From an uncultured Candidatus Binatia bacterium (lineage in GTDB: Bacteria > Desulfobacterota > Binatia > UBA9968 > CAXXLF01): DNA of 64,000 nucleotides. The notes beneath the pieces were generated by a model, which saw nothing but the letters and a program-made list of their open reading frames with translations, searched no databases and had not been told where the DNA came from. The DNA is taken from positions 256,001-320,000 of the forward strand of contig OZ244621.1 of NCBI GenBank assembly GCA_965218425.1. The letters are read 5' to 3'. Shown here piece by piece: positions 12 through 59,819 of the stretch (position 1 is its first letter; the number at the start of each line of letters is the position of its first letter). Both the position numbers and the translations under genes were made by a program.

Positions 12-130
12 TAACCGCAGATTGACGCAGATCAAAAAACAGCAAAACGCAATCAGGACTGAGCAATGAGCGCTGTGGACTGAGTATCGCACATCACGCG
101 GACTACGGACCACTGACTACAGCACAACGG
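12..130 (+). repeat. Intergenic mosaic of short periodic repeat modules
   Basis: TAACCGCAGATTGACGCAGAT (9-nt period), GGACTGAGCAATGAGCGCTGTGGACTGAG (7-nt period) and GGACTACGGACCACTGACTACAG (100-122, exact 23-nt match to 14250-14272). Confidence 0.8.
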
Positions 131-263
131 AGAAGAAAAGGACAGTTAATTGCAGACAAAGGATGAAAAGCACGTAATCGGCAGAATGCTAAAATTGAAG
201 GAACTTTATTCGGATCAAATCATTATAACGGGAAAATCCAAACACCGCGGGGCGAGTTGGATG

Positions 264-292
264 TTGACAGGACACCTGTCATCGACTAGATT
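264..292 (+). promoter_or_regulatory. Sigma70-type promoter for peroxiredoxin, with a palindrome over the -35 box
   Basis: TTGACA(264-269)-17 nt-TAGATT(287-292); TGACAG-N5-CTGTCA inverted repeat at 265-281. Confidence 0.65.
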
Positions 293-350
293 TTGCTAGC
301 ATCGTTAGAAAAAATTAAGGAATTTGAAATAAATTCCAAGGAGGTAGATT

Positions 351-1010
351 ATGGCACTACATATCGGAGAAGAAGTTCCCAATTTCACCGCGGAGACAAC
401 GGAAGGAACCATCAACTTTCACGAATGGATCGGCAACGGGTGGGCTATCCTGTTTTCGCATCCAAAGGATTTCACCCCCGTCTGCACCACCGAGCTCGGG
501 TACATGGCGAGTCTAAAGCCGGAGTTCGACAAGCGGAATTGCAAGGTGATGGGTCTGAGCATTGATTCGGTGGCGGATCACCAGAAATGGTCCAAGGACA
601 TTGAGGAAACCCAGGGCCATGCGGTGAATTTTCCAATCGTCGGTGACTTTGATTTGAAAGTCGCCAAGACGTTCGATATGATTCAGCCCAGCGCCAGCGG
701 AACCGCCGAGGGGCGAACGGCGGCGGACAATTCAACGGTCCGGTCGGTGTTCATCATAGGACCTGACAAAAAGATCAAACTGATGCTCACCTATCCCATG
801 ACGACTGGCCGTAACTTTGACGAAGTACTGCGCGTCCTGGATTCTATGCAGTTAACCGCGAAGCATCAGGTTGCCACACCGGTGAATTGGAAGCATGGCG
901 ACGACGTCATCATCGTCCCTGCAGTATCCAATGAAGAGGCACAAAAAAAGTACCCGGGCGGTTGGAAGACAGTGAAACCCTATCTCCGCCTCGTATCGCC
1001 GCCGAAGTAA
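351..1010 (+). CDS. 1-Cys peroxiredoxin (Prx6 subfamily)
   Basis: FSHPKDFTPVCTTE motif, GRNFDEVLR, TPVNW; AGGAGG RBS. Confidence 0.95.
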   Translation: MALHIGEEVPNFTAETTEGTINFHEWIGNGWAILFSHPKDFTPVCTTELGYMASLKPEFDKRNCKVMGLSIDSVADHQKWSKDIEETQGHAVNFPIVGDFDLKVAKTFDMIQPSASGTAEGRTAADNSTVRSVFIIGPDKKIKLMLTYPMTTGRNFDEVLRVLDSMQLTAKHQVATPVNWKHGDDVIIVPAVSNEEAQKKYPGGWKTVKPYLRLVSPPK

Positions 1011-1017
1011 AACCCAT

Positions 1018-1977: not shown

Positions 1978-2028
1978 CCTGGCGGCTGATCGTATTGGAG
2001 GCTAACTTCACCGGTTCCCGGCAAGCCA

Positions 2029-5885: not shown

Positions 5886-5974
5886 GATGGTTCCTCGAGT
5901 TGGACCTCCATTAACACCGCCCCTACGGACTGTCAAGGCGAGCTGAGACAACAGCAGGGAGCATAGACAAAACA

Positions 5975-6028
5975 GCTATCAGCCGTCAGCCAAAAAAACG
6001 TAAAGCGCAAAGAGCATGGCGCAAAGCG
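5975..6028 (+). repeat. Intergenic periodic modules
   Basis: GCTATCAGCCGTCAGC (exact also at 34785-34800) plus AAAGCGCAAAGAGCATGGCGCAAAGCG. Confidence 0.75.
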
Positions 6029-6032
6029 ACTG

Positions 6033-8584: not shown

Positions 8585-8860
8585 AAGCATAGCGCAAAGA
8601 GACGAGAGAAGAAAGACAGGAGGCAGTGGGCAGCAATTCAGGAACCACCGAAGGACTGCGGATAAGTGAAACGGACGGGTTCGTGCTCGTGTTCGAGGTT
8701 CGTGGCTGGGGAGTAAGGGTGCAAAGCCGGTGGTACTGAGAACTGAGCACAGGGTAAAAGACAAAGAGTATGGCGTTGGGGTAGGGTGTGGGGTTTAGGG
8801 GGAGGAAAAACGGCCGTTGAGTGTTGAGTGTTAAGGGAAGAAAGCAGAGGCGGGGTTTAG
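8585..8860 (+). repeat. Intergenic mosaic of periodic modules
   Basis: AGCATAGCGCAAAGAG, AAAGACAGGAGGCAGTGGGCAGC, TTCGTGCTCGTGTTCGAG, GTACTGAGAACTGAGCAC, GGGTAGGGTGTGGGGT, GTTGAGTGTTGAGTGTTAAG. Confidence 0.75.
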
Positions 8861-10158: not shown

Positions 10159-10979
10159 GCGGACGCGGCATTCAACTCCGCGGGCGCAAGGTCTGGCTCC
10201 TGGAGGAAGGAAGTGGCCTTCCCCTACTCTACCTCCACGGCTTCGTTGACGTGCATGGTGTCACTGAAAGTTGGATGCCCTTTCACCAGGGACTCTTTCA
10301 AAGCGCCCAGGTAATCGCGCCGGCCCATCCAGGCTGCGCTCAAAGTGACGACAACGGTGAGATAGATTCCATCGAGGACGTGGTCTTTCACTACCTGGAG
10401 GTCATAGACGCGCTGGGGCTCCATCAGTTCCACCTGGCGGGGGCGTGCGTCGGCGGCTGGATTGCGGCGGAGATCGCTGTCCGCCACCCTGAAAAGGTAC
10501 TGACACTCGCGCTGATTGGCGCTACGGGTCTCCTGGTGCCGGGCTCTCCCATCGGCGATATCTTCATGATGTCCCAGCCCGAACGCGGGACGAGCTATGC
10601 TACGCTCAGAGAGATGTTGTTCAGCAGTGCGGACCACCCCCTGGCGTTTGAACTGTTTCCCGACGGCCGCGGCCCCATTGACAGCGAGATCCGCCGCTAC
10701 CAGATGCTCAGGTTCACTTCCCGGTTCGGATTCAAGCCACCCTACCTTTACGATTGGAAGCTGAAAGATCGGCTTCACCGCATCCAGGCACCCTCTCTGA
10801 TCATCTGGGGGGAACGTGACCGCATGGTTCCCCTGGCCCATGGCAACGCGTACGCACAGGACATTCCAATGGCCAAGGGCCCCGAGATTATTAAAGGGGC
10901 AGGACATAGCGTGCATGCGGAAAGGCCCGAGGCAACGGCGGAACTACTGTTAGAATTCCTGAAGACGGAAAAAGCATAG
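10155..10979 (+). CDS. Alpha/beta hydrolase fold protein, translationally coupled to the LLM gene
   Basis: YLHG, GACVGG (Cys at the nucleophile position), WGERD, AGH; TTGA start/stop overlap. Confidence 0.88.
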   Translation: MSGRGIQLRGRKVWLLEEGSGLPLLYLHGFVDVHGVTESWMPFHQGLFQSAQVIAPAHPGCAQSDDNGEIDSIEDVVFHYLEVIDALGLHQFHLAGACVGGWIAAEIAVRHPEKVLTLALIGATGLLVPGSPIGDIFMMSQPERGTSYATLREMLFSSADHPLAFELFPDGRGPIDSEIRRYQMLRFTSRFGFKPPYLYDWKLKDRLHRIQAPSLIIWGERDRMVPLAHGNAYAQDIPMAKGPEIIKGAGHSVHAERPEATAELLLEFLKTEKA

Positions 10980-10986
10980 GACCACA

Positions 10987-11110
10987 GTTATCAGCCGTCA
11001 GCTATCAGCTAGTTGATGAGGAAGAATAACAATCCCTCCCGCTTAGGGTCAGACCTTGATAACTAAACAATCTGTGTAGTCCTAAAGAATAAACATAACC
11101 GCGGATTACT
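10987..11110 (+). repeat. Intergenic periodic modules
   Basis: GTTATCAGCCGTCAGCTATCAGC, AGGGTCAGACCTTGA, TAACCGCGGATT. Confidence 0.65.
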
Positions 11111-13248: not shown

Positions 13249-13354
13249 GTTTGCTTAAAAAGGTTATGCCGGATTCGAGGCGAGTTGCAAACACGGCCCA
13301 CAGAGCAAAGAGCATAGCGCAAGGCACGAAGAGACGGGGAGCGCGTAGCATGTT

Positions 13355-14221: not shown

Positions 14222-14325
14222 ACAGAGCAAAGCGCAAATAGTTCAGCATGGACTACGGACCACTGACTACAGGACCACGGAACGGCCGGAGCGCATAGCG
14301 CAAACCGTAGTCAGAGATCAGACCA
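14222..14325 (+). repeat. Intergenic periodic modules
   Basis: GGACTACGGACCACTGACTACAGGACCACG shared with 100-122 and 19481-19503, flanked by GCGCAAA/GCATAGCGCAAA modules. Confidence 0.8.
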
Positions 14326-18197: not shown

Positions 18198-18245
18198 GAT
18201 TCTTCTCCCTGAAAATTCTTACATCTTAGATCTTTATGAATTACT

Positions 18246-18450
18246 TAACCGCAGATCTACACAGATGAAAAATGCAAAGAGCATGGCGTACGGATCTCCG
18301 TTTCGGCCCTTTTTCGATTTTTCAACGTGCAATCCTCTATTCTTATCGCCACCACCCAGTTCTCAGTACTCATTACTCAGCACTGATTTGTCGCCTGCTG
18401 CCCATTGCTAACTGTCTTTCTGGCTTATCGCTCTGCTCCCTGCGCTTTGA
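18246..18450 (+). repeat. Composite repeat X, copy 1, plus reverse-oriented modules
   Basis: Same module order as 59540-59674 (+) and 20736-20883 (-). Confidence 0.8.
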
Positions 18451-19252: not shown

Positions 19253-19411
19253 ATCTCTCCTCCTGAATTCGTCTCGTTCTTCGACCGTGCCCTTGAGCCA
19301 TTTACCCGGGCTCAGAGATGGTGAGTCCCAGCTCACCTGGAATCGGACCTCAGCTAGATTATCTCAACCACGCTTAGCGCTAATCGCCAAAAGGCGTCAA
19401 GGGGGGAAATC

Positions 19412-19570
19412 AGCAAAGCGCATGGCGCTGAGCGCAAAGCGCGGAGGAAGAAAGACAGGTGGCAGTGAGCAGCAAAAAAGGGACCACTGACTACAGGACC
19501 ACGAGCAGACAGAGACAGAGATACGGACAGAGCAAGAAGAGAGAAAGACAGCGCGCGGATGGCAGGGGGC
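19412..19570 (+). repeat. Intergenic mosaic including composite Z, copy 1
   Basis: 19481-19551 aligns by eye with 34976-35046 (GGACCACTGACTACAGG...CAGACAGAGACAGAGATACGGACAGAGC...GAGAAAGACAG). Confidence 0.8.
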
Positions 19571-20735: not shown

Positions 20736-20883
20736 CACTGAGGACTGATTAGAAAAGGATGACAATCGAGAATAGAGGATCGAAGATCGAAAAAGGGCTG
20801 AAAGATAGATCCGGACGCCATGCGCTTTGCGCTCTGCTCTTTGCCGTCCATCGACTGCGATAATCGGCGCAAATCTGCAGCTA
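20736..20883 (-). repeat. Composite repeat X, copy 2
   Basis: Reverse complement aligns by eye with 59540-59674 and 18246-18385. Confidence 0.8.
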
Positions 20884-20926
20884 AGTTTTTTCTTGAGAAA
20901 TTTAACCGTAGTTCGTAGTATGGAGT

Positions 20927-22025: not shown

Positions 22026-22229
22026 AACACCTTGCCCCCATGGGATAAAAATATGCCGATCGAGGGGTAGTTTATCACGGCTTTGCGGGGAGTCAATTGG
22101 AGCGGCTACCAGTTTAGATTTTTGACAATGACTGAAATACCGCAACGGTACCGCGTGCGGTTTAGCATTGATCCTTGATGCGCCATGGGGTAGAAAGCCT
22201 TTCCCACGCAGCACGGAAAGGAGACGCTG

Positions 22230-22388
22230 ATGTTTTTCGAACTTCGCCAATACAAGATCAAACGTGTGGATCCGCAGCTTCGAGAGTGAAGAACAGCAGA
22301 AATGGTACCTTTCATTAACGAGTGGAACGACCGCTCGGCCATGGTTGTCACCCGCCTGGAGGCGACTCCCAAGTCGGTGGTTCAGTAG
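22230..22388 (+). pseudogene. NIPSNAP-family remnant with internal deletions
   Basis: MFFELRQYKIK, VWIRSFESEE and VVTRLEATPKSVVQ* in different frames within 159 nt; AGGAG RBS. Confidence 0.7.
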
Positions 22389-22481
22389 GAGAAATTTCCG
22401 TGGTGGTGATGGGCAGGAGCAGAGCGCATGGCGCAAAGCGTCAAGAAATCAAGTGCGCGTTTGTTTGGTTGGGGGTGGTGA

Positions 22482-22518: not shown

Positions 22519-22942
22519 ATGATTAATCTAGCCGAGAACGTCGCAAAAGTCGTAGACAATGCCTTGGCCAACGGATGTCCGTGCATACTCGCCTCCGCCT
22601 CTGCGGCTGGAGAACCCGATATCGAGTTCAAGGGGAGCATGATGGTCTTCGATAGCGAGTCCCTGGCCTATTGGGAGCGTACCAAGCGCGTGCATCTAAA
22701 GAATGTCTCTGAAAATCCGCATGTGGTGGTGATGATCAGAGATCAGAACGCGAAAGTCGCTTTGCGCTTTCACGGTGAGGCCACAGTTCACGAGAGCGGT
22801 GCGGTACCAGGTGATGGCGAGGGTGATCAAGCCGGAGCTGGATAAGGATCCGGAGAAAACGGGTCTGGCCGGGGTCATCCGCCTGTACCGGGTCACGACT
22901 CTGAGCGGCCAGGTCCTCCAGAGCCGCGAGCCTGTAACCTAA
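22519..22942 (+). pseudogene. Pyridoxamine 5'-phosphate oxidase-family protein, frameshifted near 22805
   Basis: PDIEFKGSMMVFD...NVSENPHV; continues in another frame as QVMARVIKPELDKDPEK...VIRL. Confidence 0.75.
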
Positions 22943-23134
22943 CCCAACGGCAGTCGCCTCCCTATCCAGGCCGGGGTTAACCGATGTTTCAAATGGGGGC
23001 AAACCGGTGCGGCTTCGCATCGGTTCAACAAAACGACTTGATAGCCTCCCCATTGCGCGCTATAAAAGCCATACTGATCTAACTTGGCTCCACGGGGTCA
23101 GCAAAATTCCCATTTTTTTCTGGAGGGACCAGGG

Positions 23135-28721: not shown

Positions 28722-28849
28722 ATCAGCTTACGCTCAGCTCTGTTTCCCTCAACTCTTGCTGACAACTTCTAGATAAAAGCTGACGCCGGCACACGGATTA
28801 TTGTTCAGTTGTCAGTGTTAAGGATCGATTAAAATTCTTTTCCCTGTCT

Positions 28850-28987
28850 TCGCTCAACACGCACCACTTAACACTGTCGCTCCTGCCTCCGACCCCCTAC
28901 TCCCAACACCCCACCCCGTAGTCTTATCGCTCTGCGGGCTGCACTTTGCTCTAGGCGCTAACCCTACAATCCTAGACCTGACCCCAT
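28850..28987 (-). repeat. Intergenic periodic modules, reverse orientation
   Basis: CTCAACACGCACCACTTAACAC, CCCCTACTCCCAACACCCCACCCC, CTAGACCTGACCCC. Confidence 0.55.
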
Positions 28988-29019
28988 TAGGGTTCTTTTA
29001 CCTTTTTACTTCGTACTTT

Positions 29020-34113: not shown

Positions 34114-34209
34114 GGCAGCTTCTCCTTCCTAGTTTATGATCTATACCCTAGCGGCAGCAGGTGCTTAACGGTTTTTTAGGCGGAAAACGATCTCATTTTA
34201 ATTTCCAAC

Positions 34210-34608: not shown

Positions 34609-34676
34609 GGTCGCTTCGGCCCTCTGTTGGTGTTTAGTGCAAACGCCAAATCAACGAGATGCTGCAATTTGGCTAT

Positions 34677-34705
34677 AGTCTATTCCTGCCTGACCGGACT
34701 GTCAA
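34677..34705 (-). promoter_or_regulatory. Sigma70 promoter of the GlcG-RdhA operon
   Basis: Minus strand TTGACA-17 nt-TAGACT; TGAC-N6-GTCA palindrome at 34691-34704. Confidence 0.7.
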
Positions 34706-34724
34706 ACCCTATGGAGAAGGAGGT

Positions 34725-35210
34725 AAGCACAAAGCGCAGAGCCCGCAGTACTGGGTAACGAGTTCTGATTACTGAGCAGAACTAGCTATCAGCCGTCAGC
34801 TTTCAGCGATCAGCCAGTCAAGAGAGAAAGACAGCAGGCAGTAGGCAGGGAGCAGCCGGAATAGTGTTGAGTGCTGACGGATGAGGGGCCGGAGATCGGA
34901 GGGCAGAGGTCGGAGATCAGAGATCAGGCAAGATCAAGGAAAGGCGCGAAGGGTAATGCGTTAGGACTGGACGACGGACTACTGACGACAGGACTACGAA
35001 CAGACAGAGATAGAGATAGGGACAGAGCGAGAAACGAGAAAGACAGTGGGCAGAGGGCAGTTGGCAGCAAAAGAATAATCGCTCACTACAAGATTACGAA
35101 CAACGGACTCCTGGTCGGCAATTCCCGTATCAGGGTCAGTAGTCGGTAGCCAGTGGTCCCGAATCCGTATGGACGCTATGCTCTTTGCGCTTTGCTATTA
35201 GGCTCAGTGC
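34725..35210. repeat. Largest intergenic mosaic of periodic modules (forward then reverse), including composite Z, copy 2
   Basis: GCTATCAGCCGTCAGCTTTCAGC, GACAGCAGGCAGTAGGCAG, GGAGATCGGAGGGCAGAGGTCGGAGATCAGAGATCAG, GGACTACTGACGACAGGACTAC, then GGACGCTATGCTCTTTGCGCTTTGC. Confidence 0.82.
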
Positions 35211-35293
35211 TCGACGAAGCGCTGGACAACCGGGTCCAATATGATCTAGAAGTCAGGAAGAAATAATTCTTTTGTCATCCTGGAGGTAGAAAA

Positions 35294-37507
35294 ATGGCGC
35301 AGGTGGTTGGAAGGCCCACACCGAGGGTCGAGGGAGAGGAGAAGGTCACGGGCGAAGCAATTTACAGTGCGGATGTGGCATTGCCGGATATCCTGTGGGG
35401 CAAGATTCTTCGTAGCCCGATTCCTTACGGCCGTATCAAGCGAATCGACGTGAGCCGAGCCGCCCAGGTTCCGGGGGTAAAATCCGTAATCACAGGACAG
35501 GACGTGGCAGGGCTTCTGATCGGCAGGCAGATATACGACACGCCGATCCTCGCAAACGATGTGGTTCGCTTCGTGGGGGATAAAGTGGCCGCCGTAGCGG
35601 CCGAAAGCGAAGACGCCGCAGACCAGGCCCTCCAGCTCATTGAGATTGAATACGAGGAGCGGGAACCCGTGCTAGATCCCCTGGAAGCCTTGAAGCCCAC
35701 GGCCGCCCTGATCCACCCCGATGTCCTCTCCTATAAAGGGCTGCCCAGTCCACTGGAGTCGGCGAGCAATCTTTTTGGTTACTTCTGCTGGGGGAATGGA
35801 GACACTGACGCTGGCTTTCAACAGGCCTACGAGATCGTGGAAAATACCTTCGAGACCCATGTGGTTCACCAGTCCTACATCGAGCCTCACGCGTGCGTGG
35901 TAAAGGCCGATTCTTCCGGGGGGGCGGAGATATGGGCCTGTTGCAAGACTCCCTTTGCAGTGCGCCGGCAACTCTCCAACGCCGTTGGTATCGCACAGGA
36001 AAAACTGGTTTTCCATCCGGTTCACATCGGCGGGGATTTCGGCGGCAAGGGGGGATTCATGAATATCCCCGTGGGTTACTTCCTCTCACTCAAGAGCGGG
36101 GCGCCCGTGAAGGTGGTCATGGACTACGATGAAGAACTCACCGCGGGCAATCCCCGCCATGCTTCGGTGATTAAAATAAAGACTGGAGTTAAGAGAGACG
36201 GGACCATTGTGGCGCACCACATGGAGTTTGTTTTCGATAGCGGCGCCTTCGGCTCTATGAAACCTGCAGGTTACCTCAGGGGTGCCATGAACTGCGCGGG
36301 GCCCTACAAAATGGCGAACTGCAAAATCGAAGAGAAGATGGTCTACACGAACAAGGTTCCATGCGGGCATATGCGCGCCCCTGGAGACCCCCAGGGTTTT
36401 TTCGCCAACGAAAGCCAGATGGACATCGTTGCTCGCAGGATCGGCATGGACCCCGCAGAGTTCAGGCGCAGAAACCTCCTTCGCGATGGGGACACCTCAC
36501 CCACGGGCGAGACCATGTCCCACATCAAGGCCGTCGAAGCACTGGACAAGGCCATTTCCCTGTCGGGCTACCAGAGGCCAAAGCCGAAGAATGTCGGCCG
36601 CGGCCTCGCGTTCGCCGAGTGGGGGCCGGGGGGTGGCGAGGGAAACGTGTTTATCAAGATCGATGAAACAGGGACCATTACCGTCAGCTCTCCGGTGGTG
36701 GATCAGGGAGCCGGTACGTACACGGTGATATGCGGAGTAGTCGCTGAGGAGCTGAAGACTTCCACCCAGGCGTTGAAGTTTGTCCACATGGATACGAGCA
36801 AAGTTCCCAGTGATGGAGGCGTGGGCGGCAGCAGGGCAACGAGGGTTTACGGTAACGCGGCCTACGAAGCGGCACTGAAGGCCAGAGAAGAGCTATTTGC
36901 CATTGCGGGCGACAGCTTCAAGGTCAACCCCGGGGAGCTTTCGCTGGCCAACGAGGCCGTCATCCACCGGCGCGGTAAACGTCGCATGAGTTTTGCCCAG
37001 CTAGCTCAGGCAAAAGGATTGCCCATCGATGTCCAGGGTTACTACAAGCAGTCGGAAAAGACCCATCACGCCACCGTAGCAGCGCAGGTGGCAGAGGTGG
37101 AGGTGGATCCGGAAACGGGCCAGATCAGGCTGAGACAATTTATTTCGGCCCATACCACAGGCAAAGTCATCAACCCCCTCATGCACCAGGGCCAGATTGA
37201 AGGAGGAGTGGTGTTTGGATTGGGGTACGCTTTGACGGAACATTTGATCTTTGACGATGGAAAAGTGATGACGACCAATTTCGGCGATTACAAAATCCCG
37301 AACATTCAGGACATACCGCGCTTAAAGACTGCTGTGATGGAAACGGTCCCGGGGGGGCCGGGTCCCTATAATAGTCTACCCATCGGAGAAGTGGCCAACG
37401 TCCCCACGGCGGCTGCCATCGCCAACGCCATAGAAGACGCTGTGGGATTGAGAATAAAATCCTTGCCGCTCACCGCCGAAAAAGTTTTTGCCGTAACCAG
37501 ATCGTGA
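35294..37507 (+). CDS. Stand-alone XDH/CoxL-family molybdopterin-binding subunit
   Basis: GGDFGGKG, HMRAPG, GGSRAT, GQIEGG, PIGE. Confidence 0.93.
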   Translation: MAQVVGRPTPRVEGEEKVTGEAIYSADVALPDILWGKILRSPIPYGRIKRIDVSRAAQVPGVKSVITGQDVAGLLIGRQIYDTPILANDVVRFVGDKVAAVAAESEDAADQALQLIEIEYEEREPVLDPLEALKPTAALIHPDVLSYKGLPSPLESASNLFGYFCWGNGDTDAGFQQAYEIVENTFETHVVHQSYIEPHACVVKADSSGGAEIWACCKTPFAVRRQLSNAVGIAQEKLVFHPVHIGGDFGGKGGFMNIPVGYFLSLKSGAPVKVVMDYDEELTAGNPRHASVIKIKTGVKRDGTIVAHHMEFVFDSGAFGSMKPAGYLRGAMNCAGPYKMANCKIEEKMVYTNKVPCGHMRAPGDPQGFFANESQMDIVARRIGMDPAEFRRRNLLRDGDTSPTGETMSHIKAVEALDKAISLSGYQRPKPKNVGRGLAFAEWGPGGGEGNVFIKIDETGTITVSSPVVDQGAGTYTVICGVVAEELKTSTQALKFVHMDTSKVPSDGGVGGSRATRVYGNAAYEAALKAREELFAIAGDSFKVNPGELSLANEAVIHRRGKRRMSFAQLAQAKGLPIDVQGYYKQSEKTHHATVAAQVAEVEVDPETGQIRLRQFISAHTTGKVINPLMHQGQIEGGVVFGLGYALTEHLIFDDGKVMTTNFGDYKIPNIQDIPRLKTAVMETVPGGPGPYNSLPIGEVANVPTAAAIANAIEDAVGLRIKSLPLTAEKVFAVTRS

Positions 37508-37529
37508 GGATGGAGGTAAAAGAGAACCC

Positions 37530-38801
37530 ATGGAGAAGGGAACCACACCGGGCACCGTCAGCGTGGCGGGGGTGGCTGAGCAAGCGGTCAGCATCAGCAA
37601 ACGGGAAAAACAGATCGTCATGTGGTTGAACAACATCAACCACATGATGAACCATTTTCAGAACCAGATCGTCTTCGTCATGTACCCCACCATTGCCCGG
37701 GAAATGGGCTTTGGGCCCTTACAGCTGAGCCTTCTCACCGCCGGTCGAAGCATCTTCAATAACTGGGCGCAGCTAGGCTACGGCTTCCTGACACCCTTTG
37801 TTCCACGGTTTCAGCTCTTAGGCATTACCAGCCTGGTTTACGCCTCCGGCACCTTTCTCAGTGGCACTGCCTGGAACTTTTTGAGCTTTCTGGGCATCCG
37901 ATGCCTTGCAGCTGCCGGCTCAAGCTCCATGCATCCCGTGGGCACCAGCCTCCTGGCAAGCTACTTCCGGGAAAACCGGGGCGCGGTGCTCGCCTTAAAC
38001 AGCAGCATATCCCAGGTGGGTAGCATTATGGCGCCTTTGCTGGGAGGCTTCTTGCTTCTCTCCATCGGTTGGCGCAACACTTTTTTCACCGTGGCCATTC
38101 TGAGCGTGTTCATGGCCGTGGCCTACTTCTTTTTTCGCGACCGCGTCAGGGACAACACGAAAACCGGGGAATCCAAAAAAGCAAAGCTCGCTCGCAGCAC
38201 GGCAAGCTATCTACGGCTGCTGCGCAACCGTAACTTCATGTTCATCGCCCTGGTGTTTCTCGTTGGCGGTGCTGGTCGAGGCGAAGTGATGCCCACCTAC
38301 CTGCCCCTTTACCTGGAGCGGGACTTCGGCTTCGCCACGACGTTCACCATCGCAGTGTTGTTCCTGTTCCAGCTGGGCGGTCTCGCCGGACCTCTGGTGT
38401 TCGGGTGGATCTCAGACCGCGGTTCCCGCAAGCGGGTCACCCAGACGTCGCTGTTTCTCTCCGGATTGGCGGCCATCGGTTTGGCCTGGCAGGGACCCAA
38501 CCCGACTATGATCGTTCTCAACGTCCTTTTCTTTGGAGCCGTAACCCACTCTCGTGGGAGCCTGACCCAGGCCATGGTGGCCGACTCGGTTACGGAAGAA
38601 GACCAGGATGCGGCCTTCAGCCTTTATTTCTTTCTTGGATTTCTGTCGGCTCCGGTGTGGGCCATTGTGACCGGCTACCTCTTCCAGGCCTATAGCTTTA
38701 CCGTGGCTTTTTCGGTTATGTCCACCAGCTTTTTCGCGGCAATGCTCGTAATGAACCTGGTGCAGGACACACGAAAACCGCTGGTGCAGCATAAAGCCTA
38801 G
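37530..38801 (+). CDS. MFS transporter
   Basis: Hydrophobic helices, SSMHPVG, GWISDR. Confidence 0.88.
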   Translation: MEKGTTPGTVSVAGVAEQAVSISKREKQIVMWLNNINHMMNHFQNQIVFVMYPTIAREMGFGPLQLSLLTAGRSIFNNWAQLGYGFLTPFVPRFQLLGITSLVYASGTFLSGTAWNFLSFLGIRCLAAAGSSSMHPVGTSLLASYFRENRGAVLALNSSISQVGSIMAPLLGGFLLLSIGWRNTFFTVAILSVFMAVAYFFFRDRVRDNTKTGESKKAKLARSTASYLRLLRNRNFMFIALVFLVGGAGRGEVMPTYLPLYLERDFGFATTFTIAVLFLFQLGGLAGPLVFGWISDRGSRKRVTQTSLFLSGLAAIGLAWQGPNPTMIVLNVLFFGAVTHSRGSLTQAMVADSVTEEDQDAAFSLYFFLGFLSAPVWAIVTGYLFQAYSFTVAFSVMSTSFFAAMLVMNLVQDTRKPLVQHKA

Positions 38802-38820
38802 GCAATTTAGTACTGAGGAG

Positions 38821-39082
38821 CGGCAAAGCGCATGGTGCTGGGCGCAAAGCGTCAAGAGCGATACGCCCCCGGATTTCCGAACAAAGACAACTCGCGTCCT
38901 TCGAGAACCTCAGGACCCCGAGGGAAATCGAGGGGCAAAGACGCAAAGCGGGCTCAGTACCGAGCTACGAGGGCTGAGGAACGAGCTTCCAAAAAAGTGT
39001 TAAATGTTGAGCGTAAGCCTCAGAGAGAAAGAATGGATGCGAGATTCTTTTCTTAACACTGAGGGATAATCTGCGGTTAATT
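38821..39082. repeat. Intergenic mosaic including composite Y, copy 1
   Basis: 38821-38896 aligns by eye with the reverse complement of 59710-59790; ends in ATCTGCGGTTAA. Confidence 0.75.
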
Positions 39083-39095
39083 TCTTAAAGAGCTC

Positions 39096-40346
39096 TTACG
39101 AGGTCACGTTCGCTGTCGGCTTCTCCCGCAACTTTTCGCGCACCTGGGTGCCAAGAATGAAGGCCGTTCCACCGGCCATGGCCCCGAGGAAACCATAGGC
39201 TGCCCAATAACCCAATCCGCCCGATAACACCGCAAACATAGAGGTGCCGCCCGGAGCCCCAATGGTGCCTATGGTGTTCCATACCCCGTAGAACTTTCCG
39301 CGCGCTCTTTCTGGCGCGATGTCCGACCCGAGGGTTTGCATGTTACCGCTAGTGATACCGGTACTGGCGTATACACAGATATACGCGAGCACGAACATGT
39401 TGAAGGATAATTGAACGTAATCCGTAACGCCGATGAAGACGAGGGCCAAGGTAAGCAATGAGAAGCCCGGTACAAGAGTGGCTTTGCGCCCGTAACGGTC
39501 CATAATGAATCCGGAAGCGATGGTAATGGGGATGCCAATGGCCGTTACGGCGGTGGCCAAAATCCCTATGGCCTGGGGCGACAGGTCGTAGGCATAGGCG
39601 CCATAGAGGTTTAACTGCCCTGAAAAGATGGGACCGCGAGTCAGGGAAGCAAAAAATTGGGCGGCAAAAAAGATGATGACCTGGTAGGTGAGAAGTTCCC
39701 GGAAGCTAGTGCGCGTCGCCGGGTCGGCCTGCTTGCCACCGCTACTGGTACTCTTGATGAGATGGGGTGCCGTCTCCTGCGCCAGCTTGAAACTTGGAAT
39801 GATGGCGATGAGGGACAGCAGTGCATGGGCAATAAACGGCGCACGGATATCCCAGAAGCCAGCCAACAGCCCGCCAAGGGCCGGCGAAAAGAGCCGGCCT
39901 GCGTTCTGCATCGCGGTCATTGTGGTGATTTGCCGACCGCGCTCTCGGTCCGCTCCCGTATCCGCGATCATCGCCAAGCGCCCGAGGTGCCACATCTGCT
40001 CACCAACTCCGCTGATGAACCGGTAGACCAACAACTCGGGGAAAGTCTGCGCCACCGTAATAAGAAAAGCCGAGACGGCCAGAAGCACAGGGCCGGCGAG
40101 CAGGACCTTTCGGCGCCCGACCCGGTCGATGAGCAAGCCCACGGGATAACTCGAGAGAGTCATCCCCAGTTGGTGAACGATGATCGCTAGAGAGGCAATT
40201 TCAAAGGAGACCTGGAACGACTTGGCGTATACCGGCAGCGCGGGGACCACAATGCCGGTGCCTACGGCAAGGGTCATGGCCGGCACATAGATGGAAAGAA
40301 AGTTTTGGCGCGAGTATACACCGCCGCCTCGCTCAGTACTACTCAC
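39096..40346 (-). CDS. MFS transporter (paralog of 29020-30273)
   Basis: Long identical stretches with the paralog, e.g. YSRQNFLSIYVPAMTLAVGTGI and HLGRLAMIADTGADRERGRQITTM. Confidence 0.92.
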   Translation of the reverse strand: MSSTERGGGVYSRQNFLSIYVPAMTLAVGTGIVVPALPVYAKSFQVSFEIASLAIIVHQLGMTLSSYPVGLLIDRVGRRKVLLAGPVLLAVSAFLITVAQTFPELLVYRFISGVGEQMWHLGRLAMIADTGADRERGRQITTMTAMQNAGRLFSPALGGLLAGFWDIRAPFIAHALLSLIAIIPSFKLAQETAPHLIKSTSSGGKQADPATRTSFRELLTYQVIIFFAAQFFASLTRGPIFSGQLNLYGAYAYDLSPQAIGILATAVTAIGIPITIASGFIMDRYGRKATLVPGFSLLTLALVFIGVTDYVQLSFNMFVLAYICVYASTGITSGNMQTLGSDIAPERARGKFYGVWNTIGTIGAPGGTSMFAVLSGGLGYWAAYGFLGAMAGGTAFILGTQVREKLREKPTANVTS

Positions 40347-40442
40347 ATATTACTCCCAACAGTCAACGCTTTTCGCTTGACACTCTTTCTTCCTTGCTTC
40401 CCCCAAACCCTATCCCCTAAGCTTTGCGTTATGCTTCTTGCA

Positions 40443-42062
40443 CTATATGCATTTCGCCGTTGACCTTTTTACTTTTGCCTTTTTATCAATAAGTATTTCC
40501 CTTGCCGCGTTGTAACCGGGCAATCCTGTCACACCACCACCGGGGTGGGTTCCAGACCCACACAGATAAAGGTTATGGACTGGCGTTCGGTACTGCGCCC
40601 ATCCCCGTAGGGGACGAAGAGAGAAAAGCTGGCCCATGACCATATCCCCGTGAAAGATGTTGCCATGGGTCAGTCCAAAGTCCCGCTCGAGGTCTAACGG
40701 AGTCAAAACTTGCCGGTGAATAATCGCGCTTTTGATATTGGGAGCATAATTTTCCAACGTCTCAATGACTCGATCCGCGTAGCTGTCCCGGAAGTCATCC
40801 CAATTCCCTGATTTGAGACGGTAGGGTGCGTACTGGACGAAGATGGACATGATATGTTTACCGGGCGGAGCCAACGAATCGTCATAGGTTGTGGGAATAC
40901 AACACTCGAGCATGGGGTTGGTTGAAGGAGTCCCCTGCTCGGCGTCGCGCCACGCCTCTTCCATGTAAGCCAGGCTGGGGCAGATGTGAATGGTTCCTTT
41001 GTGCTGCGGCCCCGGCTGGAGCCCGGGAAGGGCAGTGAAATTTGGCAGCTCTCCCAGGATCAAATTGACCTTCATGGCATGACCATCCATTTTTAAACTT
41101 TCAATTCGACTGCGAAATGAAGGCGGCAGATCTCCATTATTCATGAGTGTCAAGAAGGTCTGCTTGGGATCGGCATTGGATACGATGGTCTCAGCCGCGA
41201 TTTCATCGCCATTGCTCATGACGACTCCCACGGCTCTACCGGATCGCGTGCTGATTTTTGCCACGGCTGCTTCACTCTTAATCACTACTCCCTTTGATTC
41301 GGCAGATCTTTTCAAGGCCTGCGTTATGCCGCCCATGCCGCCTTTGACAAAGCCCCAGAGACCCCTTTTGCCCCTCACCTCACCCATGCAATGGTGCAAC
41401 AACACATACGCAGAACCCAGGGTGGAAGGCCCTCCGTTAAACCCAATGACCCCGTCCGTGGCAAGAGTCGCCTTGACAACCTCAGACTGAAAATAATCGT
41501 CCAGAAATCCTTGCACGCTCCGTCCCATGACTCTGGCGAGCCCGGCTAAGTCTCTCCATCCGAGACGTATCATTTCGCCGCCAAGGGTGAAGGTTCTTTT
41601 CCAATCCTCCAGGGTGGTGGGAAGTACGTTGGCCGGTGTCTTTCTGAATTGAGATTCGGCAAAGACCGCCAGGCGGTTGATGAGTTCCTCATAGACGGGA
41701 TACTGCTCGGCGTCGCGCCGCGAGAACTTGGCGATTTCATCAAGGGTCTTTTTATGATCCTGCCAGAAAAGCAAAGATTGACCGTTAGGCAATGGCGTAA
41801 AGGAAGCGGGGTCCTTGGGAAATATGCCGTAACCGAAACGTTTCAGCTCCAAGTCTTCGATCACTCGTGAATCCAGCAAACTGCACACGTAAGATGCCGT
41901 GGAGACCCGATATCCAGGCAGCGGTTCCTCAGTGACGCACGCTCCTCCAACCACTTCCCGTCGCTCCACGACCAAAACCTTTAGGCCCCAACGTGCGAGG
42001 TATCCGGCAGTCACCAGACCATTGTGGCCTGCGCCGATGATAATAACGTCGAACCGTGTCAT
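40443..42062 (-). CDS. Phytoene dehydrogenase-like NAD(P)/FAD oxidoreductase
   Basis: GAGHNGL, VGGACVTEE, DSLAPPGKH, GNIFHG, CGSGTHPGGGV. Confidence 0.92.
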   Translation of the reverse strand: MTRFDVIIIGAGHNGLVTAGYLARWGLKVLVVERREVVGGACVTEEPLPGYRVSTASYVCSLLDSRVIEDLELKRFGYGIFPKDPASFTPLPNGQSLLFWQDHKKTLDEIAKFSRRDAEQYPVYEELINRLAVFAESQFRKTPANVLPTTLEDWKRTFTLGGEMIRLGWRDLAGLARVMGRSVQGFLDDYFQSEVVKATLATDGVIGFNGGPSTLGSAYVLLHHCMGEVRGKRGLWGFVKGGMGGITQALKRSAESKGVVIKSEAAVAKISTRSGRAVGVVMSNGDEIAAETIVSNADPKQTFLTLMNNGDLPPSFRSRIESLKMDGHAMKVNLILGELPNFTALPGLQPGPQHKGTIHICPSLAYMEEAWRDAEQGTPSTNPMLECCIPTTYDDSLAPPGKHIMSIFVQYAPYRLKSGNWDDFRDSYADRVIETLENYAPNIKSAIIHRQVLTPLDLERDFGLTHGNIFHGDMVMGQLFSLRPLRGWAQYRTPVHNLYLCGSGTHPGGGVTGLPGYNAAREILIDKKAKVKRSTAKCI

Positions 42063-43307: not shown

Positions 43308-43526
43308 ATGAACAAATTCCATAAGACCGTGGTGGTCGGGTTGGTGACCGTATTCGCTTTTTGCCTGTTCGCAAGCTGTGGTCACTACGATGAAAGGCCT
43401 CAACTAGACTCCGCTTCCGCCCACCGGGGCACTGCCAACCGGCTTGAAGCCGGCTATGCCGGGTGGACCGCCCGACATGAAAGCAACGGTGTTAGGTGTA
43501 AAAACCTCAGACGGAACAGGTGCTGA
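43308..43526 (+). CDS. Small putative lipoprotein (possibly a remnant)
   Basis: AGGAGG RBS, hydrophobic N-terminus, LFASC lipobox-like. Confidence 0.45.
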   Translation: MNKFHKTVVVGLVTVFAFCLFASCGHYDERPQLDSASAHRGTANRLEAGYAGWTARHESNGVRCKNLRRNRC

Positions 43527-43739
43527 ATTCTTCCCTTATCCCAACACTGAGAACTTAACGCCAAACACTTAGTCATAATCTGCGGTTTATTGGCAAGAAT
43601 CTAACCGGTAGCTCATTTGGCACCCTCCGCCAAAATCCGGCGGCTCTGGACATTTTCACGCGATTGCAATATGGATGGCATTGTCCTGATCGGGAAAAAT
43701 CATGGTCCCGACCTGAAACCCATTTGGGGAGGTATTCCA

Positions 43740-48316: not shown

Positions 48317-48784
48317 TCAGTCTCTGTCCCCCACCATGGTTCCACGGCAGTTACGGGTGCCGCAAAAGCAGGGATGGGCGGCTTTGGCCTTTTTCGTGTG
48401 GCGCTCGCCTAGTTGGAGGTTATAGTCATAGGTCAACTCTGCGCCGGGGCGAATCTTGCGGAGCGTCTCGATGAAGATATGGTCCTTCTCGTCTATGGTC
48501 TCACAGTTGGGCGTGCAGGAGTGATTGATCCAACGGGCGGAATTCCCATTCCTTGTGGCGTCGATAACAATCTTATCGTTGACTGTGAAGAGCATGGTAT
48601 GCGGGGAGTTTTCCTGTTCTTCACCGAATAGCCTATCCGCTTCCCTGTGGGAGATGCGCATGCCCTTGTACTCGATGAGGACGGTGCGCTTGGGGATGGC
48701 TCGGAGCGCAAAGACCCCTTTGCCGTGAATGCTGGATCTGCGGACCACAAAACGCCTGCCTTTTTCTTGCTTAAGACTCGGCAT
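48317..48784 (-). CDS. Bacterial SET-domain methyltransferase
   Basis: IHGKGVFA, RWINHSCTPN, ELTYDY, post-SET CFCGTRNC. Confidence 0.92.
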   Translation of the reverse strand: MPSLKQEKGRRFVVRRSSIHGKGVFALRAIPKRTVLIEYKGMRISHREADRLFGEEQENSPHTMLFTVNDKIVIDATRNGNSARWINHSCTPNCETIDEKDHIFIETLRKIRPGAELTYDYNLQLGERHTKKAKAAHPCFCGTRNCRGTMVGDRD

Positions 48785-48995
48785 AATCTCCTCCCGTTGT
48801 GCTTTTTGTAAACACGGCCCTCTAAAAAATGGACGGCCTGAATCGCGATGACCTATATTAGCAAGACGAAAGCTCGGAGTCACTAAAAAATTGGTGCAAA
48901 GTTTGGCTTGTTACCGCCGGCGATCCATGTTGACAAGGCGTCACCTCGTACTGTAAAAGCATTTCATATGATTGGACTCGAACACGGAGGTGATT

Positions 48996-56600: not shown

Positions 56601-56652
56601 AGTTACGGCTTCGGTGATGAATTGGCCCTTTTGTTTCCCAGACGGGGTACAG

Positions 56653-57510
56653 TCATACTGTAATCACTAAGATAGACCCCACCACCGTACAAACAGCCCC
56701 CGCCATCACCCGCAAGGTGATGGCTTCCAGGTCTCTGAGAAAAATAGTGGACAGAAAGATGGAGATGACGGGATTCACGCTGATCAGAGGCTCCACAATC
56801 ACTACCTTTCCCGAGCTCAAAGCATAGAAAACCGACAACATCGCAGCCGTGTTGGAAAGCCCTGACGCAAAAAACCATCCGAAGGACCGCCGTGACAGTA
56901 AGATTGCCTGGCGACCGCCCTGTGCCTTGATCACAGTAAGAACAAAGAGAAGCGCAGTGGTGGCAGTGACGGCGGCTGCCATGAGGGGGATATCTTCCGC
57001 CAGTAATCCAAGCTTTCTAAGATTGCTAGATATGGCAAAAGAAAAGGAAGCCATGATTGGATAAATAAGATCGATTTTCCGCCATTGGGATTGCCTGGAT
57101 CCTTTTTGGGACAGGATCACCACACCTAAAATGACCAGTGACGTGCCCATCACATTCTGGAGAGTCCATGTCTCCCCCATGATGAGCACCGCCAGAATAG
57201 AAGCAAACATGGGAGATGAGTTGGAGATGGGCACGGAACGGGCCAGGCCCACTTTTTCAATGCCTATAAAGTTGAACGTCCGGCCGAGGCCGGGCGCAAA
57301 TATCCCGCTCAAGACAAAGTACCAGATAGCGGACGTCCAGAAGCTAGATAGCGGGATAAAGAAAGGCACTAGGACCCACAGGGTGATGGCGGAAATGCTA
57401 ATGGAAAACAGGGAACCAGTCATGGCGTTTGACATCACCAGTCCGCGGCGGTTCATAACATGACTAAATGAAAAACAAGAAGCCGCCAGGATGGAAATGT
57501 AAACGGTCAT
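56653..57510 (-). CDS. EamA/DMT family transporter
   Basis: GIFAPGLGR, GLARSVP, VEPLISVNP; ATGA overlap with the upstream paralog. Confidence 0.9.
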   Translation of the reverse strand: MTVYISILAASCFSFSHVMNRRGLVMSNAMTGSLFSISISAITLWVLVPFFIPLSSFWTSAIWYFVLSGIFAPGLGRTFNFIGIEKVGLARSVPISNSSPMFASILAVLIMGETWTLQNVMGTSLVILGVVILSQKGSRQSQWRKIDLIYPIMASFSFAISSNLRKLGLLAEDIPLMAAAVTATTALLFVLTVIKAQGGRQAILLSRRSFGWFFASGLSNTAAMLSVFYALSSGKVVIVEPLISVNPVISIFLSTIFLRDLEAITLRVMAGAVCTVVGSILVITV

Positions 57511-58365
57511 ACGGTAACCACCAGGATTGATCCTACCACGGTGCATCCTGCACCCAGAATAACACGGGGGGTTATGGACTCCAGGTCTTTCAAGAAAAGG
57601 GTGGTGAGAATAAGGCTAAGGACTGGACTGGCATTGACCAGTGGATCCACAACGACGATTTTGCCAAGCCCCAAAGCATAAAACACGGACAACATAGCTG
57701 TGGTGTGAGCGATCCCCGCCACTACAAACCAACCGAAGGAGCGCCGTGATAACTCAAATGTTTTCCAGCCCCCCCTGTGCCTGCTGAAAGATCAGGGTAA
57801 AGACAAAGGCCGTAGTTGCAGACACCGTGGCCGCCATGAGCGGGATGTTTGCTAGAACCAGGCCAAGCTTGCGCAGATTGGAAGATAGGGCAAAGGAGAC
57901 AGCCGCCAGGGCTGGATAGACAAGGTCTATCTTGCGCCATTGTGATGTTGCAGTCTGAGTGCGTGAAAGGATCACGACACCGAGAATGACAAGGGATGTA
58001 CCCAGTATATTTTGTAGCGGCCAAGTCTCTCCCACCACGAGGACGGCCAGGATGGAAGAAAACATTGGGGCAGTGTTGGTGATGGGTACGGCTCGTGCTA
58101 CGCCTACACGCTCGATGGCCTTGAAGGTCATGAACCGGCCCACAGCGGGGGCAAAGATGCCCCCTGCGATAAAGTACCAGACGGCAGGCGTACGAAAACT
58201 CAATAGCGGCACAAATATCGGGGTCACCAGCCACAACAGCACCGCAGAGATAATGATGGAGACCATGGTGCCGGTGGCGGCGTTGGATACCACCAAACCC
58301 CGGCGGATCACGATATGCGACAGGGCGAAGAGGAAGGCCCCCTGGATGGCAAAGTAAACGCTCAT
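57507..58365 (-). pseudogene. EamA/DMT transporter paralog, frameshift in a G7 run (57769-57775)
   Basis: G6 restores AQGGWKTFELSRRSFGWF, matching the paralog AQGGRQAILLSRRSFGWF. Confidence 0.85.
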
Positions 58366-58407
58366 CTACAGATAGCCGTCTAAGGGGTCGTGGCTCCCGT
58401 GGGCGTT

Positions 58408-59481
58408 TCAAGGGGAATAGCTTTTCTCCCCTCGCATGGTCATGAAAAGATCCGAAGAGACCTGTGTGCCGATGCCTCTGACCCTGGCCATTTCGTAAAT
58501 CTTCCTCGCAGCGGCGGCAAACTGGATTCCCACGCCGGTATTGTTCTTGAACAAGGTAATCTCCCGGTTGTCCTGGCGGCCACGGCATTGTTTTGTGAGA
58601 AGCTCGCCCAGTTCGTGAAGGTCTTCTTCACGTACCAGCCCACTTTCCAGCCGATGGGCAAACTCCGCCTGTCCATCGAGAAAAATCTGTTTTTTGCTAC
58701 CTACAATGATTAGCCCCGCACGGCGGATCACATCGTCGTCCAGCTCTCGACGGGGCAGGTAGCTGTCACCACCGACGATACTGGTGAGATGGCATCCCTC
58801 CTCGATCCATTGCCCTTTGACAACGGGCTCCACCGTGTTGGTGGCGGCTGTGGCCACGTCGCAGCCCCGAATAGCCTCTTCGGCGTTCGTCACCGGCACC
58901 ACTTCCACTCCGGCCCTTTCCGTCATTTCCTCCGCGAAGCGCTCCCGGTGAGCACGAGTTGGACTGAAGACCTTGACCTTGTCAATGGGCCTTACCGCAC
59001 AGGCGGCCAGCAGCTGGGTCCTCGCCTGTTCTCCGGATCCCAATAGACCCATGGTCTTTACATTCGCCCGGGCCAGGTGCCTCATGGCCACCCCGCTGGT
59101 GGCCCCAACGCGTAGCACGGAAGGTACATGATCATCCATGACGGCTAGTAGTTCACAACTCTCCATGTCAAAAAGAAAAACCGAACCAACGTAGTTTCCC
59201 GGATATACGATTCGCTCCGATCCCGCCACCTGTTCTCTCTGGGAGAAGCTCGAGTCGATCCTGAGGGCCATGGACTTGATGCCGGGAACCAAACCCATGA
59301 TGTTATTAAAATAGTATTGAACCCCTTGCGCCTTGCCTGGCGCTTGCACGCGAAGCCGTGCCCTGGGGGAATTCACCGCCTTTCCCTCGCCCAGCTCGTG
59401 AAAGGCCTGTTCCACTGCATCAATCAAATCGGGCATTGGAACAAGGTTCTCCATCTCCTTGTTCTTAAGGAAAAGAACCAT
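58408..59481 (-). CDS. Ornithine cyclodeaminase/mu-crystallin family protein
   Basis: LRVGATSG, GSGEQARTQ, AATNT, RELD, FKNNTGVGIQ. Confidence 0.9.
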   Translation of the reverse strand: MVLFLKNKEMENLVPMPDLIDAVEQAFHELGEGKAVNSPRARLRVQAPGKAQGVQYYFNNIMGLVPGIKSMALRIDSSFSQREQVAGSERIVYPGNYVGSVFLFDMESCELLAVMDDHVPSVLRVGATSGVAMRHLARANVKTMGLLGSGEQARTQLLAACAVRPIDKVKVFSPTRAHRERFAEEMTERAGVEVVPVTNAEEAIRGCDVATAATNTVEPVVKGQWIEEGCHLTSIVGGDSYLPRRELDDDVIRRAGLIIVGSKKQIFLDGQAEFAHRLESGLVREEDLHELGELLTKQCRGRQDNREITLFKNNTGVGIQFAAAARKIYEMARVRGIGTQVSSDLFMTMRGEKSYSP

Positions 59482-59539
59482 TGCATCGCCTCCTTCCACT
59501 GGGCAAGAATTTTCCGCGCAAAAAATTATTTTAAGAATC

Positions 59540-59819
59540 TAACCGCAGATTTTCGCCGATTATCACAGACAAAAAACGGCAAAGAGCATAGCGTCCTGGT
59601 CTCTCTTTCGGCCATTTTTCGACCTTCAATCGTCTGTTCTCGAGGCTCATCCGACCCTACTCAGTCCTCAGCACTTGTTAATCAGTACTGAGTCAGATTT
59701 GTGTCTTTTCGCGAGCTATTTTTTTCGGAAATCTAGGGCTAACTGCTCTTGACGCTTTGCGCTTTGCGCTTTGCGCCATGCGCTTTGCTGCCTTTCAGTC
59801 TGCGTAAAGCTGCGGTTAA
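59540..59819. repeat. Intergenic mosaic bounded by inverted TAACCGCAG/CTGCGGTTA; contains composite X copy 3 and composite Y copy 2
   Basis: Direct comparison with 18246, 20736 and 38821. Confidence 0.82.

Follow-up and report, generated by a model that had tools for sequence, protein, structure and literature searches.

Intergenic tandem-repeat modules in a Candidatus Binatia genome largely match the inverted arms of small gene cassettes

Introduction

Intergenic heptamer repeats, of which the short tandemly repeated repetitive (STRR) sequences of cyanobacteria are one family, have been known for decades without an origin, and the small proteins of the TIGR02436 and GxxExxY families are widespread without a known function. 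Both questions meet in a 64-kb stretch of the genome of an uncultured Candidatus Binatia bacterium (contig OZ244621.1, positions 256,001 to 320,000, forward strand; hereafter the window), several intergenic spacers of which are filled with degenerate tandem modules of 6–9 nt. This feature is real and is largely explained as the arms of small gene cassettes and as their gene-less derivatives. We describe here the anatomy of these cassettes, the arm code specific to each protein subfamily, a rule of arm order, the empty, full and gene-less states of host-gene junctions, and dispersed gene-less derivatives, including a deletion derivative that appears to have been multiplied.

The closest described architecture is the intervening sequence (IVS) of 23S rRNA that carries an S23p open reading frame (ORF) in Coxiella and Leptospira, where, as here, a PF05635 protein is encoded within terminal inverted repeats and the element is described as selfish and horizontally acquired (PMC4990558). 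The present system differs from it in that the tracts of the window and both cassettes of its source genome lie between protein genes and not in rRNA, in that the arms are tandem 6–10-mers specific to the protein subfamily with GxxExxY as a second cargo of the same design, and in the presence of hundreds of gene-less tracts, the piles of the window containing no ORF. A further trait of the IVS is its excision from RNA by RNase III. The second relative is the repetitive extragenic palindrome (REP) with its inverted doublets (REPINs) and its REP-associated tyrosine transposase (RAYT), for which non-autonomous inverted doublets in extragenic DNA likewise outnumber a repeat-flanked helper gene (PMC3116915). 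Here, however, the helper candidates are not Y1/HUH transposases, the helper gene lies inside the inverted pair, numerous arm families exist side by side and would form composites by recombination, and no GTAG/CGTC-tagged palindrome of 20–40 bp is present. Bacterial MITEs (miniature transposable elements with inverted repeats) are also internally deleted derivatives multiplied in trans, but in our case neither a transposase with these ends nor a target-site duplication was seen. The system thus works like a REPIN or MITE family whose putative parent is built like the 23S rRNA IVS, and it is a member of neither group because it is not in rRNA and has no RAYT and no palindromic REP unit.

Intergenic heptamer tandems, often in inverted pairs, are also described for Xanthomonas (GGGAATC) and Nostoc (GGGGA(C/T)T) in PMC4692102, which mentions Calothrix heptamers as well. 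There, one unit is found per genome, the repeats are read as G-quadruplex elements without a tie to mobile elements, 83% are kept between Xcc and Xac, and the main text makes no link to four-helix proteins ("helix bundle" occurs 0 times), whereas here many families coexist with near-complete turnover. The TAACTGA heptamers of Beggiatoaceae, Cyanobacteria and Bacteroidetes, which stand in tandem just upstream of start codons with a patchy and apparently horizontal distribution, are read in PMC4679880 as regulator sites whose mechanism is called not evident; as described there, they are not tied to cassette genes and their inverted partners are rare in the genome concerned. A literature search, with most subscription papers and supplements outside its scope, returned no description of arm-flanked TIGR02436 or GxxExxY cassettes outside rRNA.

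Results

Cassettes of four-helix-bundle and GxxExxY genes

The modules were followed in the source genome of the window (G000; 4.46 Mb, a single contig, C1, 97% complete), in a sister genome of the same genus that is diverged by ~13% (G001) and in further relatives (G002–G005). The 15 motif patterns used were authored from G000 itself and are therefore tuned to it, and gene boundaries are those of our own simple gene caller. They comprise families A (AACCGCAGAT), B (GCAAAGC), C (GGACTAC), D (CAGCTAT), E (TACTGAG), F (GGCAGTA), G (GTGTTGA), H (GAGATCA), I (GATCGAA), J (AGACAG), K (CGAAATC), L (ACGAATA), M (GGGTGTA), N (CGCAAAGA) and O (CACGAAG). In counts of orientation, upstream-type arms are denoted F and their reverse complements, or downstream-type arms, R; a prime (B', E') also marks a reverse complement.

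Most modules of the window match the inverted tandem-repeat arms that bracket genes of the four-helix-bundle (TIGR02436/PF05635) and GxxExxY (TIGR04256/PF13366) families, and very probably originate as such arms. A cassette of this kind consists of a tandem arm, a small ORF and the reverse-complement arm, and is located between two host genes, after the stop of the first and ahead of the start of the second. G000 contains exactly two TIGR02436/PF05635 genes, one (C1:1432733) that follows a B tract and precedes the reverse complement of that tract, the other (C1:3182466) between inverted L-type tracts, and it holds no GxxExxY gene or remnant; GxxExxY genes are present in G001. A link to four-helix-bundle and GxxExxY genes had been mentioned in a preliminary description of this DNA, and it is supported, both four-helix genes of G000 and most of those in relatives being located between inverted arms. 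Indeed, among 101 TIGR02436/PF05635 loci taken from order, class and phylum samples, 84 display an inverted upstream/downstream match score of at least 14, compared with 22 for a direct match. Furthermore, in an earlier set of 61 four-helix and GxxExxY rows (including one G000 gene and one duplicate locus), the own inverted partner ranks among the top few of 61 cross-pairings for 53 rows. The arms of GxxExxY genes are 8–9-mers, and one such locus (L039) carries the A module of the window.

Each protein subfamily has its own arm unit. Enough flank was available for 70 of 80 metagenome relatives of the G000 B-arm gene (58–75% identity, 64 distinct), and the B arm was found forward upstream in 57/70 and reversed downstream in 59/70, with 3 each for the opposite way, while it flanks only one of the 101 general four-helix loci, which is the G000 B-arm gene itself. 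Proteins less than 50% identical share almost no arm 6-mers, and the sharing increases once amino-acid identity exceeds 60%; arms correlate with proteins in a Mantel comparison of kin that are not independent (r 0.29, 0/999 permutations). Real cassettes fix the orientation of families A, B, D, F, H, I and N. In G000, no other cargo ORF was called between same-family arms (the B-arm gene itself was missed by the gene caller and recovered by a hidden Markov model), and no module-bearing spacer contains an ORF remnant except that of the B-arm gene.

The G000 system looks decayed and mostly fossil, since 9 of 66 conserved columns deviate in its B-arm gene, whereas the relatives have a median of 1 such column and never more than 5. 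The B pattern, which was the one tested across genomes, is matched 68 times in G000, 228 times in G001 and 40 times in G002; the genomes of family f2 have TIGR02436 genes with other arms and 0–16 B matches, and those of family f3 have no TIGR02436 match (0/13) and 0–3 B matches per genome.

Order of the arms

The modules had been called strand-polarised. They are not restricted to one strand, but they obey an order rule, upstream-type arms preceding reverse complements on either strand. In G000, F stands before R in 19 of 20 same-family pairs, and cross-family pairs are FR in 91 cases and RF in 6; with the seven cassette-anchored families alone, the upstream-type arm comes first by 38:1. Every F lies left of every R in 47 of the 52 spacers that contain both orientations, the single-orientation spacers being F-only in 94 cases and R-only in 86. 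The rule also holds in 800 kb of unselected G001 DNA (17:0, 2 mixed). A cassette that has lost its central part would have just this arm order.

Gene-less hairpins found in viral contigs follow the same order (28:1 for D and 12:1 for E), the viral samples comprising 80 of 119 E loci, 80 of at least 139 D loci and 80 of at least 120 J loci. In the phage-like contigs L366–L445 and L485–L564, such D and E hairpins occur at gene junctions, several per contig, and phages may carry, or be invaded by, non-autonomous forms. The J pattern of viral contigs sits inside an apparent phage gene and was set aside as uninformative with respect to cassettes.

Junctions in related genomes

Five states were found for a single junction, located between secA and argJ (these names, as well as moaC and radC below, were read off translations): the two genes abut in G001, a full four-helix cassette separates them in G000, the arms of the G000 cassette are present and its gene absent in G002, a different gene-less hairpin is found in G004, and G005 contains another cassette with other arms and a protein 33% identical. 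Likewise, the moaC-radC junction, whose flanking genes share 90–92% amino-acid identity between G000 and G001, is occupied by a GxxExxY cassette with N arms in G001 and by a gene-less N-arm pair in G000.

These examples are part of a general turnover. An earlier set of G001 junctions (330 kb) had been partly chosen for B matches, and none of its 35 module-bearing junctions match; unselected DNA was used for the repeat test. Across the 243 orthologous junctions of 800 kb of unselected G001 DNA, a few of which may be wrongly paired because the row at window 59482 was paired with a paralogue, 200 are module-free and have a median length difference of 1 bp. The other 43 are module-bearing, with a median length difference of 151 bp, and only 2 of them match, another 5 have a family in common, 6 are disjoint, and the remaining 30 are one-sided. 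Empty and filled states can be reciprocal: window 20738–20847 is 88% identical over 110 bp, without gap, to an insert at another G001 junction, the latter being 13 bp long in G000 and the window 20736 junction ~4 bp long in G001. At window 18246, the outer arms are common to G001 and the interior is replaced. At the G001 junction orthologous to G000 C1:3924830, a nested A[P...P']A' B' N' pile has a transposase gene, presumably of the IS200/IS605 type, as its immediate neighbor.

Recurrent gene-less units

An A-B-linker-I'-E' composite of 110–200 bp is found at window 18246, 20736 and 59540 and elsewhere with 72–81% identity, and C-J and N-hairpin composites recur at 83–89% identity, the number of units changing in 7-nt steps from one aligned copy to another. 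Composites are thus common to unrelated sites while interiors differ at orthologous ones, in agreement with the combinatorial shuffling initially proposed. Copies also share non-periodic linkers, three of which occur 6–8 times in G000 spacers (0–1 for controls) and a fourth 9 times (0–3 for controls); two further linkers were not above control, or single.

The clearest case of a gene-deleted unit starts from a frameshifted GxxExxY cassette of G001 (L045:1268–1889), whose ends, and never its ORF, are matched at 21 G000 and at least 21 G001 sites. A derivative in which both ends are joined and the gene is deleted is found at 16 dispersed sites (10 in G000 and 6 in G001), with a joint of 27–28 nt in 11 of the 14 copies measured. 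Such a constant joint at unrelated sites would most simply reflect one deletion that was then multiplied, and the 16 both-end derivatives would have been mobile. Many copies lie within A...A' arms, and none of this subfamily is located in the window.

Reality and extent of the repeat tracts

A genome-wide scan recovered 399 intergenic tracts in G000, for 22 in dinucleotide shuffles. Lag-7 periodic segments are mainly intergenic (233/347), the intergenic share being 17/92 at lag 5, 41/381 at lag 6, 42/120 at lag 8 and 43/348 at lag 9. Tracts are found in 232 of 3132 spacers, 91 of which contain at least two motif families, and the window is the densest 64-kb bin of the genome (44 tracts for a mean of ~6). 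The statement that intergenic DNA is assembled from modules is therefore correct as to the existence of the tracts, but it does not describe the general make-up of intergenic DNA. Contigs of a separate study reproduce window 33500–40500 with 0 substitutions and one inserted base, so that the tracts are no assembly artefact; over the same interval, four contig sets (three of them with patchy cover) display no change within piles.

All the repeat units named in the preliminary description are present where it placed them, and 13 of its 15 spacers match motif patterns, those near 28850 and 43540 containing only degenerate tracts read by eye. The exact repeats are confirmed as well, with 23 nt shared between 100 and 14250, 22 nt between 14258 and 19482, and 16–18 nt in other pairs such as 5974/34784 and, inverted, 19411/59775. 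It was also right to discard CRISPR arrays and classical REP: the tracts have periods of 6–9 nt without spacer register, no constant repeats of 23–47 bp with unique spacers and no Rfam match in the window, and their units are tandem 6–10-mers, not palindromes of 20–40 bp. The window genes are ordinary metabolic and transport genes, and models of four-helix, GxxExxY, Cas and transposase proteins found no match among the 54 window proteins scanned.

Discussion

Proposed mechanism

The modules are likely to be what a small, previously undescribed mobile element has left behind and not a regulatory code, because gene-less arm pairs and composites occupy different junctions in two sister genomes. 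The mobile footprint proposed at the outset accords with the arms found around four-helix and GxxExxY genes and with the empty, full and gene-less states of junctions. We hold with moderate confidence that gene-less arm pairs, piled up together with mixed composites, make up the window spacers; these units would be non-autonomous copies that swap interiors at shared arms. The scheme begins with a cassette, composed of an arm, an ORF and the reverse-complement arm and carrying the arm unit of its protein subfamily, settled at a host-gene junction. Its ORF would then decay or be deleted while both arms stay, two states that are seen by comparison and whose direction we infer. The deletion product would be copied in trans to many new junctions in the manner of a MITE or a REPIN, and such a spread of the gene-less units is, on balance, what we favor. 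Arms already in place would attract further cassettes, and crossovers at shared arms would produce combinatorial strings in which upstream-type arms are kept left.

The sole catalytic candidate is the GxxExxY protein (PF13366), which has a PD-(D/E)XK fold. It may cut or nick arm hairpins, host repair then copying an arm-bearing donor, but its role as the mobilizing enzyme, via cut-and-copy repair between arm-bearing sites, is proposed here only tentatively. The four-helix protein, called Avd-like in the preliminary description and whose sequence matches 2GSC (XCC0516) and 2RLD and no others in a search of PDB sequences, may be an arm-binding helper or a hitch-hiker acting as a pentamer, the state in which XCC0516 was solved (PMC4990558). 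It is conceivable, although doubtful, that a transposase-free system spans several phyla, in which four-helix and GxxExxY proteins would read their own 6–10-nt arm codes, insert hairpin cassettes at gene junctions and mobilize gene-less derivatives, these recombining into mosaics, and from which both ORF-bearing rRNA IVS and the intergenic heptamers of bacteria (GGGAATC in Xanthomonas, STRR in cyanobacteria, TAACTGA in Beggiatoa) would stem. If true, it would provide a natural library of orthogonal protein-repeat pairs.

Several observations weigh against the main scheme. No cassette with E, G or J arms was found, the E pattern being matched in 0/121 genomes and a cassette gene being near 0/6 G loci; in addition, a cassette gene lies within 300 bp of none of the 303 viral loci that matched one of the patterns B, D, E, G and J. 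Both C-arm cassettes (L077 and L269) are oriented opposite to the use of C in G000 and G001, and a 21-nt C motif lies beside a four-helix gene at 1/47 loci. The correlation between arm and protein follows from shared descent too. Strict symmetric nesting, counted by pattern, is sparse (1 nested, 1 crossed), and the piles fold no better than ordinary spacers. Since G000 has no GxxExxY gene, the helper must have been lost from it. The movement of cassettes and gene-less units is, for its part, deduced from genome comparison: gain and loss at empty and filled junctions are unpolarized because the outgroups do not have the gene pair (for the window 20657 junction, the two genes lie apart in G002 and the other outgroups give no match for them as a pair), and inspection by eye revealed no target-site duplication in empty/filled pairs of these genomes ~13% diverged. 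Records with the titles Acidobacteriota, Planctomycetota-group, Clostridia, Verrucomicrobia, Actinomycetota and Binatia contain the 21-nt C motif, which frequently forms the right arm of hairpins without a gene, the reverse of its use in G000.

Alternative explanations

The piles could be passive scars only, left by full cassettes inserted at the same site and blended into composites by host gene conversion. The gene-less arms of the G002 secA-argJ junction, which are the same as those of the G000 cassette, would fit this view, as would a derivative copy that retains a few bases of pre-ORF sequence, the missing target duplications and the identity of only 72–90% between gene-less copies, which makes them old. 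We nevertheless consider it unlikely in view of the 27–28-nt joint at 11/14 unrelated sites, of a chimeric composite with non-matching arms that fills junctions for which the sister genome has only 4 and 13 bp, and of module-bearing spacers devoid of ORF remnants except for the B-arm gene. Decidedly less probable is a host regulatory code, in which binding sites for RNA- or DNA-binding proteins or RNase III stems would tune operons, as proposed for Beggiatoa TAACTGA. In tandem spacers, downstream-type arms are nearer starts (median relative position 0.60) and upstream-type arms nearer stops (0.28), two window piles fold well (z -2.5 and -3.5), and arms of the same locus pair better than cross-locus arms within one subfamily. 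Yet modules turn over almost completely between congeners, neighboring genes have no common function, and convergent spacers hold the most tracts per length (0.88/kb), divergent ones, which bear promoters, the fewest (0.34/kb). Folding was also rejected as a general property of piles, the median z of module spacers being -0.74, 0.0 and -1.33 for -0.65 in module-free ones (small samples, 8 shuffles each). The nucleoid- or RNA-binding code initially suggested is thus not supported, given this folding and orthologous spacers that keep their modules in only 2/43 cases. Arms may have secondary effects on transcripts, but heptamer tracts should not be taken for regulatory motifs of their neighbors.

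Simple repeats that arose locally, through slippage or the action of a short-repeat-templating polymerase, and were later captured as arms by small genes would account for the 7-nt steps in copy number and for gene-less units in many phyla and phage contigs. They explain neither the order rule, nor the shared non-periodic linkers, nor subfamily-specific arms, and composites of 110–200 bp are common to unrelated sites, so that slippage is largely refuted as the sole cause, while it probably contributes to variation in arm length. The templating system put forward earlier has no candidate in G000, where PF00078 has 0 matches, which also dismisses a diversity-generating retroelement (Avd and reverse transcriptase); reverse transcriptase is absent from G002 too, and only 3/20 copies of a G001 reverse-transcriptase element, whose 5' ends were not located, have a module nearby. 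The whole explanation is very improbable. We give hardly any credit to a known REP/REPIN or to a MITE derived from an insertion sequence (IS) and mobilized by RAYT or an IS transposase, even though the repeats are dispersed, intergenic, inverted and gene-less and G000 has four Y1 transposase matches. Indeed, the enclosed genes are PF05635 or PF13366, the arms are not of the palindromic REP type, and a RAYT link was rejected since 0/4 Y1 genes are bracketed by modules, one having a single J' ~200 bp away.

The spacers of the window

Arms of the pattern-matched spacers are named as read on the + strand. The spacer at 12..125 contains upstream-type arms only, namely A (AACCGCAGAT, a GxxExxY arm), an E-like arm (GGACTGAG) and C (GGACTAC/GGACCAC), and includes the 23-nt exact match to 14250. 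At 5954..6030, the succession B (GCAAAGC), D (CAGCTAT), B corresponds, on the sense (-) strand, to downstream-type arms ahead of a UbiD-family gene. All arms are of the upstream type in the pile at 8585..8835, formed by B, J/F (AGACAG, GGCAGTG), E, M (GGGTGTA) and G (GTGTTGA). A D arm follows a stop codon at 10973..11110, with an A-like arm at 11096; a B arm occupies 13297..13327, and its G001 counterpart begins alike with a B-like tract but continues into different DNA; and B, C, B and H (GAGATCA) arms are found at 14222..14325.

More complex piles follow. The one at 18244..18450 reads A-B-linker-I'-E'-F'-J'-B', and in G001 its outer A and B' enclose a different, short interior. A B-F-C-J-J pile spans 19411..19565, and over 99 bp its C-J composite shares 83% identity with the one at 34976. 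In a 270-bp spacer, an E-I-linker-B'-A' composite extends over 20736..20885 and has 10 further matches of at least 70 bp in G000. The largest pile (34725..35210; fold z -3.5) reads B E D J F G H C J F / C' B' E', with outer B/B' arms common to G001 and a wholly different interior. At 38810..39085, E B B, an N hairpin, E G / G' A' fill a convergent junction that is almost empty in G001. The arms at 59532..59830 are nested as A B [I' E' N'] B'B'B' A' (fold z -2.5), the left A-B being common to G001, which then switches to a B-C composite. Read by eye without pattern match, degenerate G, G', M' and B' tracts lie at 28760..28990 in a convergent spacer that measures 298 bp here and 67 bp in G001, and degenerate G-like, E'/G' and A' tracts at 43470..43590.

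A single B arm (22414..22445, +) comes directly past the stop codon of a small decayed gene with internal deletions (22190–22412, +), whose G001 orthologue is intact and looks NIPSNAP-like to us. The ORF that follows (22519–22945, +) may be frameshifted, with a stop at 22845 and similarity to G001 continuing to 22927. Two adjacent genes at 32192–34113 (-) match the reductive dehalogenase model TIGR02486 below cut-off, and an ankyrin-repeat-like protein is encoded at 48317–48883 (-), with a match to an effector model far below cut-off.

Other repeats

Other repeat families were met in these genomes. A GGGGTCAG tract, which is a REP-like signal of its own, stands ahead of the Y1 genes at G000 C1:1404656 and 1971014. 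A non-periodic intergenic repeat, which we take for the start of an IS3-type element, is present in 15–23 copies in G000, together with at least two other families of 12–15 copies. G001 harbors, across many contigs, ~25 full-length copies, with near-equal scores, of a ~2-kb element that encodes a 460-aa reverse transcriptase, is absent from G000 and has a 3' end that is presumably of the group II intron type; several of its insertion flanks carry short TGACCCC tandem tracts.

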